This document shows positions 3,427 to 12,380 of a DNA stretch of 13,721 nucleotides, piece by piece (position 1 is the first letter of the stretch; each line of letters opens with the position of its first letter). The position numbers and the translations under genes are program-made. The notes beneath the pieces are model-generated. The model made no database searches and was not told the DNA's origin. It worked only from the letters and a program-made list of their open reading frames with translations. Source of the stretch: a virus. The stretch is taken from the UHGV virus genome UHGV-0121712, one strand, 5' to 3'.

Positions 3427-4065
3427 TTAATTCCTATAAAATGTGCCATCATTAAACGGGTAGGCGTCAGATGAAAAACCGAAATAAGGACTAATAATTT
3501 TTCGAATATTTACCTGAACACCACTAGGAACTGACATTACTTCATAATTTGTGAGAATAGATTCCTCGTATGGTGCAAGTTCAAACTCGAATGTTATTCC
3601 AATGGTCATATCTCGATAATTCACACAGTATGCCCTTCCTCTTTGAAAAAATAATATCTTTAAAAACTTGTTGATTTCTGGAATCGTAGCAATACTTATG
3701 TTCGTAAACGCTTTGCAAAATATGAGTGTTCTGTAAGCCTCGTCACTCAATCTAACATTTGTTGTCTCCTGTGCTCCTCCAAAAAAAGGAGAGTTGTTGA
3801 ACGGAGCGGGGTAATTTGGTTCTGCATTATCAGCTTCACTGAATCCGAAGGAATTGGTCTCTATAGGTGAGTTAATATAGCGACTTATCCCTACTATTTT
3901 CCCCCACATATCCAGGCCGAATGTATCACAGGTAGTCAAATCCCATACTTTTTTAATAAACTCATCAGTGAAATCATCAAGGCTAATTGCCTGATTAAAG
4001 GTATCAATGATGGATAGTAATTTTTTGCTTGCAGAGTACTGGGTAAGAATTGTGTCCTCCCACAT
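3427..4065 (-). CDS. Baseplate / tail-fibre-proximal protein (P2 gpI position)
   Basis: 212-aa ORF between the J-like gene and the fibre gene; RBS-like GGGGGA upstream. Assignment by synteny, not clear sequence recognition. Confidence 0.55.
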   Translation of the reverse strand: MWEDTILTQYSASKKLLSIIDTFNQAISLDDFTDEFIKKVWDLTTCDTFGLDMWGKIVGISRYINSPIETNSFGFSEADNAEPNYPAPFNNSPFFGGAQETTNVRLSDEAYRTLIFCKAFTNISIATIPEINKFLKILFFQRGRAYCVNYRDMTIGITFEFELAPYEESILTNYEVMSVPSGVQVNIRKIISPYFGFSSDAYPFNDGTFYRN

Positions 4066-4075
4066 ACATTTCCCC

Positions 4076-5305
4076 CTACGATAATGTAACAGTGATATCT
4101 GATTCCTGAATGGTTGGAACCTGGTCTATGCCCATAGTCACAGCCGGTCCGTATAGTGAACCATCGAGAGAAACTTCAAGAGACAAAATTCCAACTGTAT
4201 CAGGAGATATTGAAATAACAGGGGCATAGTATTTACCAGCATTTATCGTCGAACCAATTCGTGCCTTTCCAATACCCTCATATCCTCCATTGAACACAGT
4301 GACAATCATTTCCTTTACTTGTTTAGTAATATCACTTGGGGGATTTAGTGAAGCATCGACATTTACCTTAAAGTAAACCCGCGTAGGTGATGCCTTTTGC
4401 CATTGCATTACATAAGATGGATATGGCGGCATGTAATTAACGTTATCGTAAACAGTGAACGTTGTATTACCATTCATATTGGCCCCGGGGTTATAAGTAT
4501 TGAATATTGACTCAGCAACATCCGTATCAGCCCCGCCATAAACACAAATATAAACAGAATGCGCAAGAATCGGGAAATTCGTTGTTCCTTTATTTACTGT
4601 TTCTGCAGTTCTGTTTGACCATACGTAAGCATCAAGCACACCATCAGTCGCAAGTAACGCGGCTAATGTAGATGCGTCCTGATTTCGACTGTTTCTGGCA
4701 ACTGATTGTCTCCGGCGAGTTTCAAAGGCGATCCGTGATTCAACATCAACACCAACGACTCCAGGGCTAGTATTATTTACAGCATCCCACCCGGAAACGG
4801 CTCGATAAATCTGGTTCAGTGAACCTGCGGCACACGGAATCGGCCCGGTTGTTGTGTTGACAAACTGCACATCAACAGAGCCTGATGAGGGTATTACAGC
4901 ATTATCAATTGACTGATATATATACCCGCTCGTATCCACAGCGGTACTCCCTGCTGGTATTGTTGTTCCAACCTGACCAATGCATGTTGCTGTAACAACT
5001 GTCCCCTGAGCAGCGATCCGCTCCATAAAGTAAATCCGACCAATCCCGTCCTGGAATCTGCCGGTTGAAAAGTCAGGGTTAATTTGATTAAACAAACAAA
5101 GAAGCTTGTCGTATTCCTGAGCGATAATTTCAGTGTCAGACTGGGCGATCTGCCCTTGCGGTGAACTCAGTGACTGACTTGCGCCACCGCCAAGGGCCGT
5201 TGACATGTCTGTAAGTCTTCCCGCCAATACATCTGCTATATCGGGGACTGAAAGACCGTTTTCAGTGATGGTTACATCAGGAACAGCCGTATTTAATGTC
5301 GTCAT
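4076..5305 (-). CDS. Baseplate J-like protein (P2 gpJ / T4 gp6 position)
   Basis: 409-aa ORF; ATG overlaps the stop of the upstream gene (ATGA); size and position consistent with the baseplate J family. Confidence 0.65.
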   Translation of the reverse strand: MTTLNTAVPDVTITENGLSVPDIADVLAGRLTDMSTALGGGASQSLSSPQGQIAQSDTEIIAQEYDKLLCLFNQINPDFSTGRFQDGIGRIYFMERIAAQGTVVTATCIGQVGTTIPAGSTAVDTSGYIYQSIDNAVIPSSGSVDVQFVNTTTGPIPCAAGSLNQIYRAVSGWDAVNNTSPGVVGVDVESRIAFETRRRQSVARNSRNQDASTLAALLATDGVLDAYVWSNRTAETVNKGTTNFPILAHSVYICVYGGADTDVAESIFNTYNPGANMNGNTTFTVYDNVNYMPPYPSYVMQWQKASPTRVYFKVNVDASLNPPSDITKQVKEMIVTVFNGGYEGIGKARIGSTINAGKYYAPVISISPDTVGILSLEVSLDGSLYGPAVTMGIDQVPTIQESDITVTLS

Positions 5306-5661
5306 AAGGTGGCCTGTGCAATATTACCATTGATATCTGTAACGCGGATTGTCCCGCGAGTTGTGCGTGTATTCTTGTCAAAGAAAACTGACGCCAGAGC
5401 ATCCTCAACAACGGGTAATTTGAGTGCTTCAGCCTGCATTTTCTGAGCAATAAAACCAGGAGATGGTCGCCTGCCAAGAACTTCTGCCTTCCATGGGATC
5501 CCAAGTGTATTGTCGTAATAACACTCTCCTGAAAACACCAGGCATGCACTGGCGACATCCTGAGCAACAGAATATGATTCTTCTGCGATCGCCAGATTGC
5601 CATTTCCGTCAAGCGTCAAGTCCCACGTAGAAGTGTCCAGCTGCATAGTTCTGTATGTCAT
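5302..5661 (-). CDS. Small baseplate wedge protein (P2 gpW / gp25 position)
   Basis: 119-aa ORF, ATGA-coupled on both sides, between the spike and J-like genes. Confidence 0.55.
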   Translation of the reverse strand: MTYRTMQLDTSTWDLTLDGNGNLAIAEESYSVAQDVASACLVFSGECYYDNTLGIPWKAEVLGRRPSPGFIAQKMQAEALKLPVVEDALASVFFDKNTRTTRGTIRVTDINGNIAQATL

Positions 5662-6350
5662 GTCGGTTTATCCGTTGCATTGGAATTTATTGTTGACCCA
5701 CCACTTTGTATTCCTGAAACAGAATGTTTGTGATTGTTATAGTTGTCCCTTAAATTTTTAACAGTAGATGACTGTGAGTCTGCGTTATCCTGAATATTGC
5801 CACTAACTTTAAGTAAAGGCGTATTCATGTTGACTCCATCAGGAGCATCAATATTTAACGATGAGCATTTGATATTTAGTGGGTTAGGCGTGGTTATATT
5901 TATTGCACCGTCAGCGAATTCAATGAATTGAGTAGGTGAAATGTTTAATACCCCACCAAGATAAATCGCATCCGATTTACTGTGTCGTCTTTTGCTTCCA
6001 GGTACTGATTCTTTACGATTTTTTCTTACCAGTGATGTGTCTTTGTCGCATACCGCAATCAGACCAATATCACCTGCCACAGGGTCCATAATTACAGCGC
6101 TGTTTCCTCTCTGCAACCGCCATACGGGAAGATCATATAAAACCGAGTTGGAAATCATTTTTCCTGTACGGTCTGTTCTGGTTAGTAAAGGAAGAACATC
6201 AACAACTAAATCTGGTGCTTCCCCTCTGACTTCCTGAACTTTCGCTAACTCAATGAAGAAATATCCAGACATCAGCATCTCAAAAATATATTCCTGAGAT
6301 TGAGCCTCACTTACCTGAGCAGGCGTTGGAGTAAATAGTTGCTTATCCAT
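5658..6350 (-). CDS. Baseplate spike protein, gpV-like
   Basis: 230 aa from the internal Met MDKQLF... (listed ORF starts at an earlier Met inside the upstream gene). C-terminal NHKHSVSGIQSGGS resembles the P2 gpV apex motif (HTHKHPGDSGG) as I recall it. Start overlaps the upstream stop by 8 nt. Confidence 0.7.
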   Translation of the reverse strand: MDKQLFTPTPAQVSEAQSQEYIFEMLMSGYFFIELAKVQEVRGEAPDLVVDVLPLLTRTDRTGKMISNSVLYDLPVWRLQRGNSAVIMDPVAGDIGLIAVCDKDTSLVRKNRKESVPGSKRRHSKSDAIYLGGVLNISPTQFIEFADGAINITTPNPLNIKCSSLNIDAPDGVNMNTPLLKVSGNIQDNADSQSSTVKNLRDNYNNHKHSVSGIQSGGSTINSNATDKPT

Positions 6351-7332
6351 TATTCTGTTGCGCCTCTGCTCTTTGTTCCGCTGTTCTGGCGGCAATACAT
6401 ATTGAGTGCCATGAACCATTTGGCATCCATGATGATAATTCATGCCGAACGGAGGTTAACTTATACCTTCCGCTTGCATGTGGTAGTTCTGTTTTGATAT
6501 CCACATATCTTCCAATGCAAAGGAGAGATGAATATTGCGTCTGAAACATCAGCCCCCCATTTGAAAATACAGGATATCCAACAAGTCCGTATTCTCTGGA
6601 TATAAACGGAATTACATCATCTCTGTTTTTTTCTGAAGGCCAGAACTCTACTTTTGCAGGTGGCGTAGCTGACATTGCCAGTCCATAATCTGAACAGACT
6701 CTATAAAGTTGCTCAAAAACACTTCCTTCAAAATGCGGACTTCCTGATGTTGTCATCCCTTTTACATTATTAAACACAGCTTCATAACCTGCACTTGCAC
6801 AAATGGATGAGATGACATCTTCAACACTTTGCGCCCCCTGTGCTGTAAACGGGCTTGCTGGCATGTTCTGCAAATCAACATTAGAAGAAGCTGTTATCAT
6901 CAGGCTGCTTTCAGGAGCAGAATTCATGTTTGCTATTGATGAAAGCATCGTGCCAGAGAAAACAAGAGAATCATCGGCAAATACTTCAACATTTAGCTTC
7001 TGCCCTTCTCCAATAATACCATCAGCCTTCCCTGATATATCAGCAAGCCTTTCAATTCCTAACCCGTAAAGAGATATATCAGCCTGAGCGCCTCCCCGAC
7101 CGGTAACAAAGTTCAGGGATACTGTTGACTTAACATTTCTGATGGAGATTTTATTGTTCCCATTTTTATCAAATGCTGATGATTCATTCGTGAAGTCAAA
7201 CCGAAGACTGTGATTTTTATACAAGCTCGTTTTCCTCGATGTAGTACAGCAAGTAACGGCTACCCAAGCCTTCCCATTGCGGATCCGATTCCCCATCATT
7301 ATCAATGAAAATAAGGTCTCCCTTAAATCCAA
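6343..7332 (-). CDS. Tail or baseplate structural protein, possibly a hub component; true start uncertain
   Basis: 329-aa ORF in the coupled structural operon; its 5' end overlaps the upstream ORF by 116 nt in another frame. Confidence 0.45.
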   Translation of the reverse strand: MDLRETLFSLIMMGNRIRNGKAWVAVTCCTTSRKTSLYKNHSLRFDFTNESSAFDKNGNNKISIRNVKSTVSLNFVTGRGGAQADISLYGLGIERLADISGKADGIIGEGQKLNVEVFADDSLVFSGTMLSSIANMNSAPESSLMITASSNVDLQNMPASPFTAQGAQSVEDVISSICASAGYEAVFNNVKGMTTSGSPHFEGSVFEQLYRVCSDYGLAMSATPPAKVEFWPSEKNRDDVIPFISREYGLVGYPVFSNGGLMFQTQYSSLLCIGRYVDIKTELPHASGRYKLTSVRHELSSWMPNGSWHSICIAARTAEQRAEAQQNNG

Positions 7333-7519
7333 GGTAGGAATATCTTACCATCTTATTCCCATACAGACATGGAACGCCCTGCATAATTGGGACTTCATTA
7401 ACAGTTAAATCCATGTACATAAAACTCTGTCGCTGAACAAGTTTTATATTACATTGCTGACCAGACAGACTTACCGAAATGGACTGAGATTTGCTGGGAA
7501 GAACAGATACTGTAATCAT
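7217..7519 (-). CDS. Small structural-operon protein, or 5' part of a frameshifted gene continuing into 6343..7332
   Basis: 100-aa ORF whose ATG overlaps the upstream stop (ATGA). Confidence 0.4.
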   Translation of the reverse strand: MITVSVLPSKSQSISVSLSGQQCNIKLVQRQSFMYMDLTVNEVPIMQGVPCLYGNKMVRYSYLGFKGDLIFIDNDGESDPQWEGLGSRYLLYYIEENELV

Positions 7520-8331
7520 GTACTCGCCTTAACTATATTTTTTGCAATATCTGCCGCTTTTTTTGTTGCGCTGTTTGTGACTTCGAGTATTGGTTTGGAT
7601 ACCGTATCAAGAGCACTCTGGAATTCAGTCTTGATTGTGTCGGAGATTTTTCCAGTGATTTCGCCAACAGATGACTTCAGTGATGACCATGATTTACTTA
7701 GCTCATCGACAGTAGATTCCCTGGCTCCGCCATTGGTTATTTGCGGATCAACTCCTACACCTCCCTGTGACTTATTGTTATCCGTTGGCTTCTGTTCTGA
7801 CTGAGATCCAGAGAGGATAACCTCCATTTGCTGAATGACCTCCTGAAAATCAAGATAAACCGTCAGAAGAGTCACCCCTTTTTGAGAGTTAACTTCGTAA
7901 TAGTGGTCAACAAGGTCGAAACTCTCCAGAGTTTCCTTTGGCGTTTCAATATCGTATGTTTTTGCAGAGGACAGCATCATTTTGATTGTGTTCAGCGTGC
8001 TGTTCTGGCTTGTGAATGTGAGATCGAAAATATTCGGGATGTTGCCGGAAAAACCAGTAAGACCATTTACGATGATTGCGCATCTTACCCTGGCGGGTTC
8101 TTTAACTTTGTTGATGGACTGGTATTTCCCTTTCTCCACCGGAGCGTTTGTTATTTGCGCCCTGCCACTTGGCTGCACGGATGCCATACCACTGAACTCA
8201 AGAGCAACCTCGCCAGTTTCCCTGTCACGAATCACATACTGAGGATGCAGAACGCTGTCGATGATCGAAAGCGGAGAGCCACCACCGATAGCATTGAATA
8301 TGTCTGCTGTGTTTAAATCGATTATGCCCAT
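7516..8331 (-). CDS. First gene of the structural operon, function unknown
   Basis: 271-aa ORF with GGAGAG RBS immediately after the upstream terminator; C-terminal region rich in Ser/Thr/Lys with coiled-coil character; ATGA-coupled to the next gene. Confidence 0.5.
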   Translation of the reverse strand: MGIIDLNTADIFNAIGGGSPLSIIDSVLHPQYVIRDRETGEVALEFSGMASVQPSGRAQITNAPVEKGKYQSINKVKEPARVRCAIIVNGLTGFSGNIPNIFDLTFTSQNSTLNTIKMMLSSAKTYDIETPKETLESFDLVDHYYEVNSQKGVTLLTVYLDFQEVIQQMEVILSGSQSEQKPTDNNKSQGGVGVDPQITNGGARESTVDELSKSWSSLKSSVGEITGKISDTIKTEFQSALDTVSKPILEVTNSATKKAADIAKNIVKAST

Positions 8332-8342
8332 CTACTCTCCAT

Positions 8343-8369
8343 TAAACAAAAACCCAGCCGAAGCTGGGT
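8343..8369 (-). terminator. Rho-independent terminator after the antirepressor gene
   Basis: On the minus strand: ACCCAGC / TTCG loop / GCTGGGT followed by TTTTTGTTT, between the ant stop (8388) and the next start (8331). Confidence 0.75.
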
Positions 8370-8387
8370 CGTTGCGTTGGTTATCTG

Positions 8388-9266
8388 TCAGTAGTTATGT
8401 ACTGAAGGAGGTAATTCTTTATTCTTAAGTCTCATCCATGCGGAAAGATTCGTTGGTCCGTCTGGCTCATTGATATCAACATCTCGTGTGTGATTGATTA
8501 AAACGTCTCTCGCTATATCGATAATACGGGAGAACTCATAACCGCAGTCATGACATCTGCCGGAATAGTTCGATTGAATTTGTTTTAATGCCGGATACAG
8601 TTCGCGGAATAATGCCTGTGAACGGTTGGCATAATCCCATAACCATACAAGGCTGTTTGCTTCTTTTGCAGAAATCTCGTTGGTTTTCTTCTCTTGTTTG
8701 CCGATGAACTCACCTTCAAGCACTACCCTGTGGATGTACTCTACGGCCAGCGGGATTTGTTCAATTGAAAGTTCATCAATGCTGTCAATACCAAAACGCT
8801 GATGAACCATATTGTATGCATCGTCATAGCGAAGTCCTTTCTTTCCTACCAGCATGTTTACTGCATCGCGTAGCGGTGTTCTTTCCTCAACAGTGGTTTT
8901 CTTTCCTTTTACATACTCGCCATGTTTGCGAATTGAAGGCAGAACTTCTGCTGTTACCCACTTGCGGAATTTGTGTGGGACTGAACCTTTATTGACTGCA
9001 TCGCGGCAGCGCAGAACCAATGTATACATACCTGATTCGCTCACAATGCTTAGATTCTGCTCACCACCAAGGGTGTAACTTAAAGTTACTCCCTTTTCAT
9101 CGTCATCAAGTGCAGTAAGCGCCTTGCGTGAGTTAGTCAAAGCTAAAGCATCACAAACATCTTTAGCTACAAACCACGGCTCGCCGCACTTGTTAATGAC
9201 GCGAATTTCACTGTCGCCAAATTTGAAGATGGTGAAATCGTTTTGTGCCTTTGCTATACTTTTCAT
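8388..9266 (-). CDS. Antirepressor-like protein with N-terminal Bro-N domain
   Basis: 292-aa ORF. N-terminus ([14 protein letters not shown]...[16 protein letters not shown]) is a Bro-N-type motif; sits directly downstream of an Arc-like gene, as ant does in the P22 immI region. Confidence 0.7.
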
Positions 9267-9337
9267 GTCAATATTTCCCGATCAGATTTGTTGATGTAGA
9301 AGCCTCGCCAGTTCCCGCTGTCGGGGCTTCGTTATTT

Positions 9338-9484
9338 TTAGAGAGCATTCCGCATTTTCTCCCGGTACTTCAACCACCAAGCAAGTCCCTGAACCAACAC
9401 TGAGTTTTCTGACATCCCCTCTTCCTTGGCGATGCGTTTCACCTCCTCCTTAAAACGGTACGGATACCGATAACCGCGAGGCAT
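9338..9484 (-). CDS. Arc-family ribbon-helix-helix repressor
   Basis: 48-aa ORF (not in the six-frame track; decoded codon by codon): MPRGYRYPYRFKEEVKRIAKEEGMSENSVLVQGLAWWLKYREKMRNAL. Aligns in pattern with P22 Arc (PQFNLRWPREVLDLVRKVAEENGRSVNSEIYQRV): beta-strand, helix A, G-x-S-x-N-S turn, helix B. Weak RBS. Confidence 0.55.
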   Translation of the reverse strand: MPRGYRYPYRFKEEVKRIAKEEGMSENSVLVQGLAWWLKYREKMRNAL

Positions 9485-9591
9485 CGACTAATCTCGTTAG
9501 CAACGCGCATGAAACCATCTTCGGTATCTGCCACGCGATGCTCCACGACCTCCAGTTGAGGCCTGTAATCAGCTAACTTAACGACGCCCAT
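9439..9591 (-). pseudogene. Truncated N-terminal remnant of an O-like replication initiator
   Basis: ATG with strong AGGAG RBS. First ~34 codons (KLADYRPQLEVVEHRVADTEDGFMRVANEI) align with the lambda O N-terminus (KILNFGRGNFAGQERNVADLDDGYARLSNML) as I recall it; the frame then runs out of register into the arc gene and stops. No rest of O and no P follow. Confidence 0.4.
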
Positions 9592-9773: not shown

Positions 9774-10052
9774 TCAGGCCTCGAAGAATTCGCCGTTCTT
9801 CGGGGCTTTTTCTTTTGTCAGCATTCTGGCTACTTTCTTAGCCAGTTCCGCCAACTCCTCGTCTTCAACACCCCATTCAAGAACAGCCAGAAGCATTCCC
9901 ATTTTGGGGATGAAGCTATCTTTCCATCGCGAAATTTGCGATTCATTAATCCCTAACGCGTCGGCAACCTTTCGCTGACCACGTACAGCAATTCGATTCA
10001 GGATGTTGCTTGTAATTGCATTCGCTTTCTTGCGAGTACTTGTAAGTTGCAT
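9774..10052 (-). CDS. cII: CII-type lysogeny activator (non-lambda allele)
   Basis: 92 aa from Met MQLTSTRKK...; conserved SQISRWK and MLLAVLEWGV motifs shared with lambda CII; upstream leader AAGGAAATACTTACATATG is lambda-like. Confidence 0.85.
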   Translation of the reverse strand: MQLTSTRKKANAITSNILNRIAVRGQRKVADALGINESQISRWKDSFIPKMGMLLAVLEWGVEDEELAELAKKVARMLTKEKAPKNGEFFEA

Positions 10053-10171: not shown

Positions 10172-11524
<1,353 letters not shown>

Positions 11525-11986: not shown

Positions 11987-12121
11987 ATGGATGCACAAAC
12001 ACGCCGCCGCGAACGTCGCGCAGAGAAACAGGCTCAATGGAAAGCAGCAAATCCCCTGTTGGTTGGGGTAAGCGCAAAACCAGTTAAAGGTATTCGCGAT
12101 AAAGGTAAATATCGGCAATAA
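11987..12121 (+). pseudogene. N: Truncated antiterminator N (first ~33 codons lambda-like, then unrelated tail and stop)
   Basis: MDAQTRRRERRAEKQAQWKAANPLLVGVSAKPV matches the lambda N arginine-rich boxB-binding N-terminus; it continues KGIRDKGKYRQ-stop instead of NRPILSLNRKPK..., giving 44 aa versus 107 in lambda N. Confidence 0.8.
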
Positions 12122-12197
12122 ATAACAATCCTCGCACTCGCGGGGATTTCTTTTATCTGAACTCGCTACGGCGGGTTTTGTTTTATGGAGATGATAA

Positions 12198-12365
12198 ATG
12201 CACTTCCGAGTCACAGGTGAATGGAATGGAGAACCATTCAACAGAGTTATCGAAGCAGAGAACATCAACGACTGCTATGACCACTGGATGCTGTGGGCGC
12301 AGATAGCACATGCAGACGTAACCAATATTCGAATTGAAGAACTGAAAGAACACCAAGCCGCCTGA
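12198..12365 (+). CDS. Small hypothetical protein immediately upstream of xis (55 aa)
   Basis: ATG to TGA ORF (MHFRVTGEWNGEPFNRVIEAENINDCYDHWMLWAQIAHADVTNIRIEELKEHQAA) ending 39 nt before xis; I believe lambda has a 55-aa ORF at this position, from memory. Confidence 0.55.
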   Translation: MHFRVTGEWNGEPFNRVIEAENINDCYDHWMLWAQIAHADVTNIRIEELKEHQAA

Positions 12366-12380
12366 TGGCGGTTTTTTCTT
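12357..12380 (+). terminator. Candidate intrinsic terminator between the small ORF and xis
   Basis: GCCGCC / TGAT loop / GGCGGT followed by TTTTTTCTT, overlapping the end of the 55-aa ORF. Confidence 0.45.

Follow-up and report, generated by a model that had tools for sequence, protein, structure and literature searches.

A probable P22-type ant terminator bounding an ant moron, stranded in a GF-2-type deletion remnant

Antirepressor cassettes and terminators in late operons

In lambda, RNA polymerase that has been modified by the Q protein is generally resistant to terminators. For phage P22, Berget, Poteete and Sauer reportedly found in 1983 (J Mol Biol) that transcripts from P_ant terminate before gene 9 and that gp23 relieves this termination. 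The late operons of P22-like phages contain a variable segment, the “ant moron”, which polymerase starting at P_late must cross to reach the tailspike gene (Villafane et al. 2008, PMC2629481). In the P22-like prophage BTP1, transcript-start mapping gave secondary promoters at the tailspike gene (PMC7067206), and thus the genes located 3' of the ant moron are not always promoterless. The genome paper on phage L describes the roles of terminators within operons as formally unknown and raises attenuation and blocking as possibilities (PMC8022706). Edno5, a relative of the Edwardsiella myovirus GF-2, is spontaneously induced and forms myovirus particles (PMC6372524).

Here, we describe a hairpin in the virus genome UHGV-0121712, a stretch of 13,721 nucleotides that is referred to as the window. 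The hairpin is located on the minus strand between the antirepressor gene ant and a gene for a 271-aa baseplate-region protein (Table 1). With a probability of roughly 80%, it is the terminator at the end of a P22-type immI cassette, the mnt-arc-ant unit known as the ant moron, in the late operon of a GF-2-type lambdoid myovirus. The slot of the ant moron is placed between the tape-measure gene and the baseplate genes of the late virion operon, and the hairpin marks its 3' edge. The element is of a known type, a P22-type ant terminator that bounds an ant moron, and it is here stranded in a GF-2-type deletion remnant.

Table 1. Positions of the hairpin, its neighbours and the truncated genes in the window
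Feature	Positions	Strand	Basis
Pam3_gp18 plug, hub, spike, gpW-like, baseplate J and DUF2612 genes	3427..7519	-	Pfam and PHROG
271-aa baseplate-region protein, weakly Dit-like; first gene past the hairpin	7516..8331	-	Pfam, PHROG
Shine-Dalgarno motif GGAGAG	8335..8340	-	Sequence; 3 nt upstream of the ATG
U-tract UUUUUGUUU; UUU-G-UUU at 8350-8344 directly 3' of the hairpin 3' arm	8344..8352	-	Sequence; first two U able to pair with the stem base
Terminator hairpin: 5' arm GACCCAGC (8370-8363), loop UUCG (8362-8359), 3' arm GCUGGGUU (8358-8351)	8351..8370	-	Sequence, terminator scan, fold, identity with P22-pbi
ant, antirepressor, 292 aa	8388..9266	-	Bro-N and P22_AR_C domains (Pfam 7e-20 and 5e-28)
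arc, 3' part; Arc-like repressor from codon ~10	9338..9470	-	blastn to L019; PHROG Arc-like, positions 63-103 of 105
O-like replication initiator, N-terminal fragment	9471..9591	-	PHROG O-like, profile positions 2-42 only
Truncated N of 44 aa, in which lambda N residues 1-33 run into unrelated sequence	11987..12121	+	Sequence; homology

The hairpin, its homologs and its conservation

The gap between the ant stop codon TGA (8390-8388) and the next ATG (8331-8329) comprises 56 nt on the minus strand (8387-8332) and is, as the original prediction stated, filled by the hairpin, the T-tract and the GGAGAG motif. The stem begins 17 nt past the ant stop codon and on the same strand, at the gene end where an intrinsic terminator belongs. 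A consensus scan scored the hairpin as a terminator, with eight base pairs, five of which are G-C, and a UUCG loop closed by a C-G pair. The G+C-rich stem-loop alone folds at -13.8 kcal/mol, and a 68-nt region folds at -21.9 kcal/mol, compared to -12.6 +/- 2.4 kcal/mol in shuffled sequences (z = -3.8; none of 200 shuffles match it). The tract UUUUUGUUU is rich in U, with 8 U in 9 nt and one G in between (5 U, G, 3 U). The element is thus a predicted intrinsic (Rho-independent) terminator of uncertain efficiency, given the interrupted U-tract. The earlier description of a strong terminator with a TTCG loop agrees with the fold as regards the terminator and the loop, while “strong” is a label for an element with an interrupted U-tract. 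The plus strand has no T-run past the stem, so the hairpin would act one way only, and a bidirectional terminator was ruled out. When the entire window was compared with Rfam at the gathering thresholds, no family was hit, and hence neither sar nor oop. The GGAG at the Shine-Dalgarno position is kept in most relatives.

No sigma-70-like site with at least 9 of 12 matches was found on the minus strand from 9266 to 8331, which covers ant and the gap. This upholds the claim that there is no room for a promoter, and the downstream genes need transcription past the hairpin. A relaxed scan at 8/12 gave three weak sites only, one of which (8349-8321) would initiate downstream of the ATG. The same unit of hairpin, ribosome-binding site (RBS) and ATG is also found behind unrelated upstream genes, for example a P63C-domain gene, and a promoter inside ant can therefore not be the general answer. 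A promoter within the gap or ant was rejected as a general mechanism, since the upstream gene differs among the relatives, and this includes the suggested route via a promoter buried in the 3' end of ant.

The window and P22-pbi are identical at 47 of 47 nt, in a segment that starts in the final codons of ant and extends across the stem-loop to include five U. The annotated terminator 3' of ant in P22-pbi reads ...CTACTGACAGATAACCAACGCAACGACCCAGCTTCGGCTGGGTTTTT, and a terminator is annotated at the equivalent site in P22-pbi, epsilon34, and Emek. Because of the 47-nt identity to the annotated P22-pbi site, the hairpin is, at the level of sequence, the orthologue of the P22 immI terminator (t_ant). 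In a megablast search, positions 9330-8348 matched the arc-ant modules of P22-like phages. The ant gene shows 96-97% nucleotide identity to EC.P3 and Kapi1, and the match continues through the hairpin to 8348; in P22, epsilon34, and Emek the match covers the 3' half of ant.

The homology to the ant modules of P22-like phages ends at 8348, and the homology to the baseplate modules of the two relatives L001 and L003 starts at 8369, so that the two modules meet at the hairpin. In L019, L086, and L001, a hairpin stands on either side of the cassette, and the two share the tail GGGTTTTT(T)GTTTA. The one past the tape-measure gene reads ACCCACC-GTCA-GGTGGGTTTTTTGTTTA, and the one past ant reads ACCCAGC-TTCG-GCTGGGTTTTTGTTTA. 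In L003, the ACCCACC-GTCA hairpin directly precedes ATGGAGAGTAGATG. L001 contains an extra insert of 870 bp between two copies of the ACCCAGC-TTCG-GCTGGGT hairpin, which at its start matches the spacer that separates ant from gene 9 in P22. The sequence of the window corresponds to the left flank of the first L001 copy and the right flank of the second. The single-copy form is present in the window, in L019, and in 6 of 5,426 complete E. coli genomes. The arrangement fits gain and loss of the cassette by recombination at the bracketing hairpins. As regards the transcription signals that a moron should carry, the terminator is present; repeated operator-like sequences are found in L019 and a consensus promoter match in GF-2, and those of the window are deleted.

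The survey of the hairpin covered 80 loci encoding the Dit-like protein, of which genomes supplied 15 and viral contigs 65. The loci are phylogenetically related, so that the counts overstate the number of independent observations. Nearly every locus with a spacer of at least 74 nt past the tape-measure gene has a hairpin with a T-tract that ends 14-22 nt ahead of the Dit-like ATG. Slot sizes may be inflated where the tape-measure end was taken from a partial tblastn match (e.g. L004, L043, and L056). About 50 distinct related loci have the hairpin and T-tract upstream of the Dit-like gene, including GF-2 and near-full-length E. coli prophages. The stem variants are ACCCAGC/GCTGGGT, ACCCACC/GGTGGGT, (A)ACCCGC/GCGGGT(T), CCCGC/GCGGG, CCTCGC/GCGGGG, AGCTCAC/GTGGGCT, AGCCTAC/GTGGGCT, CCCCTG/CAGGGG, and CCCGCC/GGCGGG, and the loops include TTCG, TCCG, GTCA, CTCG, TACG, CTAG, and others. 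RNAalifold recovers the hairpin, with double, compensatory changes in three of six pairs; the MAFFT/RNAalifold alignment of the gap misplaces a few rows, and loop-anchored hairpin calling was mainly relied on. The TTCG loop is frequent but variable; conservation lies in the structure, the T-tract, and the placement right against the RBS. In a few loci from symbiont genomes, the 5' arm of the hairpin is broken.

The hairpin tracks the upstream accessory slot, above all a co-oriented neighbour, and is absent if the tape-measure gene abuts the Dit-like gene. It was found in none of the 12 loci in which the tape-measure stop codon is 2-11 nt from the Dit-like ATG; in these loci, the genes that flank the cassette are adjacent, as expected for a moron. 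Among distinct loci, it is present in 48 of 50 with a co-oriented nearest upstream long ORF, compared to 3 of 7 with a divergent one (Fisher p = 0.0012, for related rather than independent loci and a crude ORF calling). L006 and L080, which are identical in sequence here, have kept the terminator in a 74-nt spacer that contains no cassette, and three loci have kept the hairpin beside a divergent gene. Therefore, insulation from cassette promoters cannot be its only role.

Intact relatives and the deletion in the window

L001, L003, and L086 are near-complete E. coli prophages that contain genes for lysis, terminase, head, DUF3383 sheath, tube, and SLT-domain tape measure, followed by the slot and the baseplate genes, with all late genes co-oriented. 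L003 encodes a Pfam Antiterm (Q) protein upstream of the late genes, and in the intact phages the hairpin-RBS-ATG unit is located roughly 16-20 kb downstream of Q, within the late operon. In E. coli Z1323CEC0001, which carries a near-full prophage, the 151 nt across the hairpin junction are 100% identical to the window.

The 271-aa protein matches Pfam Dit_like with E = 1.8e-4, below the curated cut-off, and PHROG 1830 with 2e-74, and its homolog in L086 is annotated as “phage baseplate protein”. In every relative, the Dit-like gene is preceded by either the tape-measure gene or the accessory slot. It had been taken for the first structural gene, a position that it has in the window by way of the deletion from O to arc; in the intact relatives it follows the tape-measure gene. 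A fibre gene is also present among the genes 3' of the hairpin, and the order of the baseplate genes agrees with that in L001, L003, and GF-2. On their own, the baseplate genes of the window could make no structure.

The closest isolated phage is the Edwardsiella myovirus GF-2, the Dit-like protein of which is 66% identical. Up to and including the tape-measure gene, its genes run N-like, cI, cro, cII, O, P, Q-like, lysis, terminase, head, sheath, and tape measure. Past the tape-measure gene follow orf19, the reverse-strand orf20, mnt-like, arc-like, ant, a gap of 52 nt, and the Dit-like gene. The gap contains the hairpin AACCCGC-TTCG-GCGGGTT and six T, and a 10/12 promoter match is located before arc (TTGACA-18-AATCAT, a consensus match only). 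The late operon of GF-2 contains two further canonical terminators on the plus strand, at 4396 and 13804. An arc-ant operon under P_ant and Arc/Mnt control is found in the intact relatives L019, L001, L086, and GF-2. The layout in which the terminator is flush with the RBS is no oddity of this locus and is the same in GF-2, Edno5, and the near-complete E. coli prophages. It is native to a virion-making lineage, and transcription must therefore pass the hairpin in lytic growth.

An intact version of the locus is found in L019, the Dit-like protein of which is 100% identical to that of the window. Positions 3519-9470 of the window are 99.95% identical to positions 2862-8813 of L019 (blastn), and the match stops within arc, where position 9470 of the window corresponds to position 2862 of L019, inside the L019 arc gene (2833-2994). 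Upstream of 9470 are the O-like fragment, an ORF of 52 aa, cII, nutR/tR1, cro, the operators, and cI; from their protein sequences, we take cro and cI to be of the phage 434 type. Comparison of the two sequences indicates that a deletion fused O' to arc at about codon 10, at 9470/9471. Lost with it were P_ant, mnt with the Arc/Mnt operators, and the whole segment that begins in O and contains Q, P_R', the lysis, head, sheath, and tube genes, and the tape-measure gene. With arc cut at codon ~10 and P_ant, operators, and mnt deleted, the window has no arc-ant operon under P_ant and Arc/Mnt control. The O'-'arc junction is covered by none of the 5,426 complete E. coli genomes.

The N gene is truncated, as had been pointed out: the 44-aa ORF retains residues 1-33 only of lambda N, and the homology to the N-bearing phages Sf6 and HK446 ends at 12087. 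The window thus contains no intact N, with NusA- and polymerase-binding regions, for lambda-type antitermination, and the boxB sequences of nutL and nutR are present, the latter (10146-10132) between P_R and the hairpin. The hairpin is now located downstream of P_R-cro-nutR-tR1-cII-O'-'arc-ant, and P_R, which is repressed by cI, is the only promoter remaining upstream of it in the window. Without N, transcripts from P_R that extend beyond tR1 should mostly end at the hairpin, and silence or at most leaky expression is expected for the orphaned baseplate genes. The silence of the operon predicted from the loss of N is thus reasonable for a remnant in which only P_R is left, but its cause is mainly the deletion of Q and P_R' rather than the loss of N. 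Nor would N be the relevant antiterminator in this lineage, which, judging from the Q-family genes in the intact relatives, would use late Q from P_R'.

Function of the hairpin and comparison with known systems

Lambda and P22 biology suggest how such a terminator would work in an intact phage. Ordinary RNA polymerase that starts at P_ant would halt at the hairpin, and transcription of the cassette would thereby be kept out of the baseplate genes. Late in infection, Q-modified polymerase from P_R' would ignore the hairpin and transcribe the baseplate and fibre genes. With such read-through, the baseplate genes would need no promoter of their own, and the terminator could therefore abut the RBS. 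Villafane et al. describe the same logic of read-through in a late operon for the tailspike gene of P22, which lies behind the ant moron (PMC2629481).

The hairpin could instead be an attenuator that acts independently of the cassette, either by partial termination that lowers the baseplate and fibre mRNA relative to that of the head, sheath, and tube genes, or by blocking transcripts that are not made by Q-modified polymerase. These are exactly the possibilities named for intra-operon terminators in the phage L paper (PMC8022706), and the late operon of GF-2 contains other terminators as well (4396 and 13804). However, the tail module does not require the hairpin, since it is missing wherever the tape-measure and Dit-like genes adjoin (12 loci). 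The terminator in the 74-nt tape-measure-to-Dit spacer of L006/L080, which has no cassette, would agree with attenuation but is also explicable as a scar of cassette loss between flanking hairpins, and Q-modified polymerase generally resists terminators in lambda. We consider attenuation unlikely.

A reading along the lines of the original prediction, in which the layout would be peculiar to this locus, the structural genes would need N-mediated read-through or a promoter in the 3' end of ant, and the loss of N would silence them, is very unlikely. The hairpin-RBS-ATG unit is also present in intact phages, 16-20 kb or so downstream of Q, and the unrelated genes that precede it elsewhere (the P63C-domain gene) rule out a general ant promoter; in the window, ant has no minus-strand promoter match of at least 9/12. 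N is indeed truncated, and with the nutR boxB between P_R and the hairpin an intact N would let P_R transcripts through, but the silencing here results from the deletion of Q and P_R', not from the loss of N.

That the hairpin is a short conserved site for cassette swaps with an incidental effect on transcription is highly improbable, even though the module homologies overlap across 8348-8369 only, hairpins with the same tail bracket the cassette in L019, L086, and L001, and the 870-bp insert of L001 lies between hairpin copies of which the window combines the left flank of copy 1 and the right flank of copy 2, since a pure site would keep its sequence, whereas the stems vary with compensatory changes but retain their T-tract and their distance from the ATG, which points to selection for terminator function. 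The roles as terminator and as recombination joint are mutually compatible.

We also considered a more far-reaching role, either for the bracketing hairpins as a dual-purpose docking element or for the O'::'arc remnant as a rewired unit, and find it doubtful that either holds. As a docking element, the conserved 3' arm and T-tract of the hairpins, GGGTTTTT(T)GTTTA, may be a crossover for immunity and defence cassettes between the late operons of podoviruses (P22-like) and myoviruses (GF-2-like), and the terminator function would leave an incoming cassette insulated yet transparent to Q. As for the remnant, the O'::'arc deletion may have brought the antirepressor, which is intact, under the control of the 434-type P_R, an SOS-inducible promoter, in a unit capped by the terminator. 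If so, the defective prophage could de-repress co-resident prophages in trans.

On the preferred reading, as the terminator of an ant moron, a terminator that is flush with the RBS of a virion gene is normal for a late operon carrying an accessory cassette, although it seems paradoxical. The baseplate genes of the window were orphaned by the deletion from O to arc and not by the loss of N. The locus, of significance mostly for annotation, extends the picture of the P22 ant moron to contractile-tailed lambdoid phages of the GF-2 type, which are common as E. coli prophages, and documents terminator hairpins as joints where a cassette is gained and lost.

As in the lambda Q system, a Q-family gene precedes the lysis and virion genes in the intact relatives, all of them co-oriented with the hairpin. 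The window differs in that it lacks Q, the Q target site, and P_R', and read-through of the hairpin by Q would be expected by analogy. GF-2 and Edno5 (Gofduovirus, ORF22-ORF24) share the tape-measure gene, mnt-like, arc-like, ant, a hairpin with a TTCG loop, and the Dit-like gene, with a gap of 52 nt in GF-2 compared to 56 nt in the window. The stem in GF-2 is AACCCGC/GCGGGTT, and GF-2 is complete, forms plaques, and has Q and every late gene, whereas the window is a remnant.

The P22 ant terminator is identical in the stem, the loop, and the preceding 22 nt, and is likewise placed immediately past the ant stop codon. The two also share an upstream arc-ant operon, the spacer of which contains a sar-like antisense terminator, and a downstream virion gene of the late operon that is reachable only by transcription across the cassette (PMC2629481). 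However, the P22 terminator has 7 U rather than the interrupted UUUUUGUUU, and about 170 nt separate it from gene 9, compared to 19 nt to the ATG in the window. The downstream gene encodes a podovirus tailspike in P22 and a myovirus baseplate protein in the window, from which P_ant, mnt, and the 5' end of arc have been deleted. As in the P22-like ant moron, the slot in the late operon is variable and terminator-bounded, with gene sets that differ among relatives and often include ant, and insert-free relatives exist, here the 12 loci with adjoining tape-measure and Dit-like genes. The host operon is instead that of a contractile-tail lambdoid phage of the GF-2 type, and the slot is located at the boundary between the tape-measure and baseplate genes, whereas in the P22-like phages it is located at the boundary between the injection-protein and tailspike genes.

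The O'-'arc deletion and the N stump

On the minus strand, a deletion has joined arc, at approximately codon 10, to the remaining N-terminal part of an O-like replication gene. The resulting chimeric Arc-like ORF of 48 amino acids starts with an ATG at position 9484 and has a new N-terminus. Because of this deletion, the intact ant gene is now located downstream of the cI-controlled P_R-cro-cII unit rather than of P_ant, the promoter of the mnt-arc-ant cassette. The N stump, on the plus strand, is directly followed by two terminator-like hairpins in tandem (12127-12148 and 12159-12178). Between these hairpins and the genes xis and int is an ORF of 55 aa that has a separate terminator (12355-12374). 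The similarity to N-bearing phages ends at position 12087.

Coordinates and properties of features in the window and in Edwardsiella phage GF-2
Feature	Coordinates	Strand	Remarks
O-acetyltransferase-like membrane protein, 416 aa	616-1896	+	own strong terminator, 1873-1896
Short motif AAC(C/A)AACGCAAC, variants AACACGCAA	8371-8382	-	immediately 5' of the ant terminator hairpin
Hairpin TCCCGCTGTCGGGG, then CTTCGTTATTTTT	9313-9326	+	arc-ant spacer, strand opposite to arc and ant
O'-'arc fusion	9338-9591	-	junction 9470/9471
Terminator-like hairpin	9776-9808	+	14 pairs, -19.5 kcal/mol; antisense to cII 3' end
158-aa ORF	11048-11524	+	downstream of cI; PHROG 2651 (function unknown)
N stump and tandem hairpins	11987-12178	+	N of 44 aa
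Hairpin AGCCCGC-CAC-GCGGGCT, perfect palindrome	13804-13820 (GF-2, L085)		left edge of ant cassette

Variation in the slot between the tape-measure and Dit-like genes

Two extreme states of this accessory position were observed, a spacer that contains only a terminator versus three hairpins and an extra insert. The former is a 74-nt spacer in Izhakiella (L006/L080, 3924-4000), and the latter is found in L001 (14279-15168), where the insert of 870 bp is flanked by two identical copies of the hairpin and its first part matches the ant-gene 9 spacer of P22. The scan scored the hairpin at the left edge of the GF-2 cassette as a terminator in either direction, and a clean T-run is present on the plus strand only. 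Since terminators are predicted at both edges of this cassette, late transcripts must pass through both.

The motif preceding the ant terminator is also present in related loci (L002, L023, L029, L035, L014, L039, L064, L068, L017 and L070), where it likewise directly precedes the hairpin and follows several unrelated upstream genes; two loci without the hairpin have it as well. A role as a linker or as a boundary sequence is possible.

Candidate lysogen-expressed genes and antisense hairpins

The O-acetyltransferase-like gene is located at the distal end, opposed in direction to the tail genes, and together with its terminator it looks like a lysogenic-conversion moron. The 158-aa ORF, which contains an internal methionine followed by a hydrophobic signal-like segment, could be an accessory gene expressed in the lysogen; its site is that of lambda rex.

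An Rfam scan of the window gave no family match for the hairpin in the arc-ant spacer, a site that corresponds to the terminator of the P22 antisense sar RNA. The hairpin antisense to cII is the strongest of the terminator-like hairpins in the window, and its site corresponds to that of the lambda oop RNA terminator.
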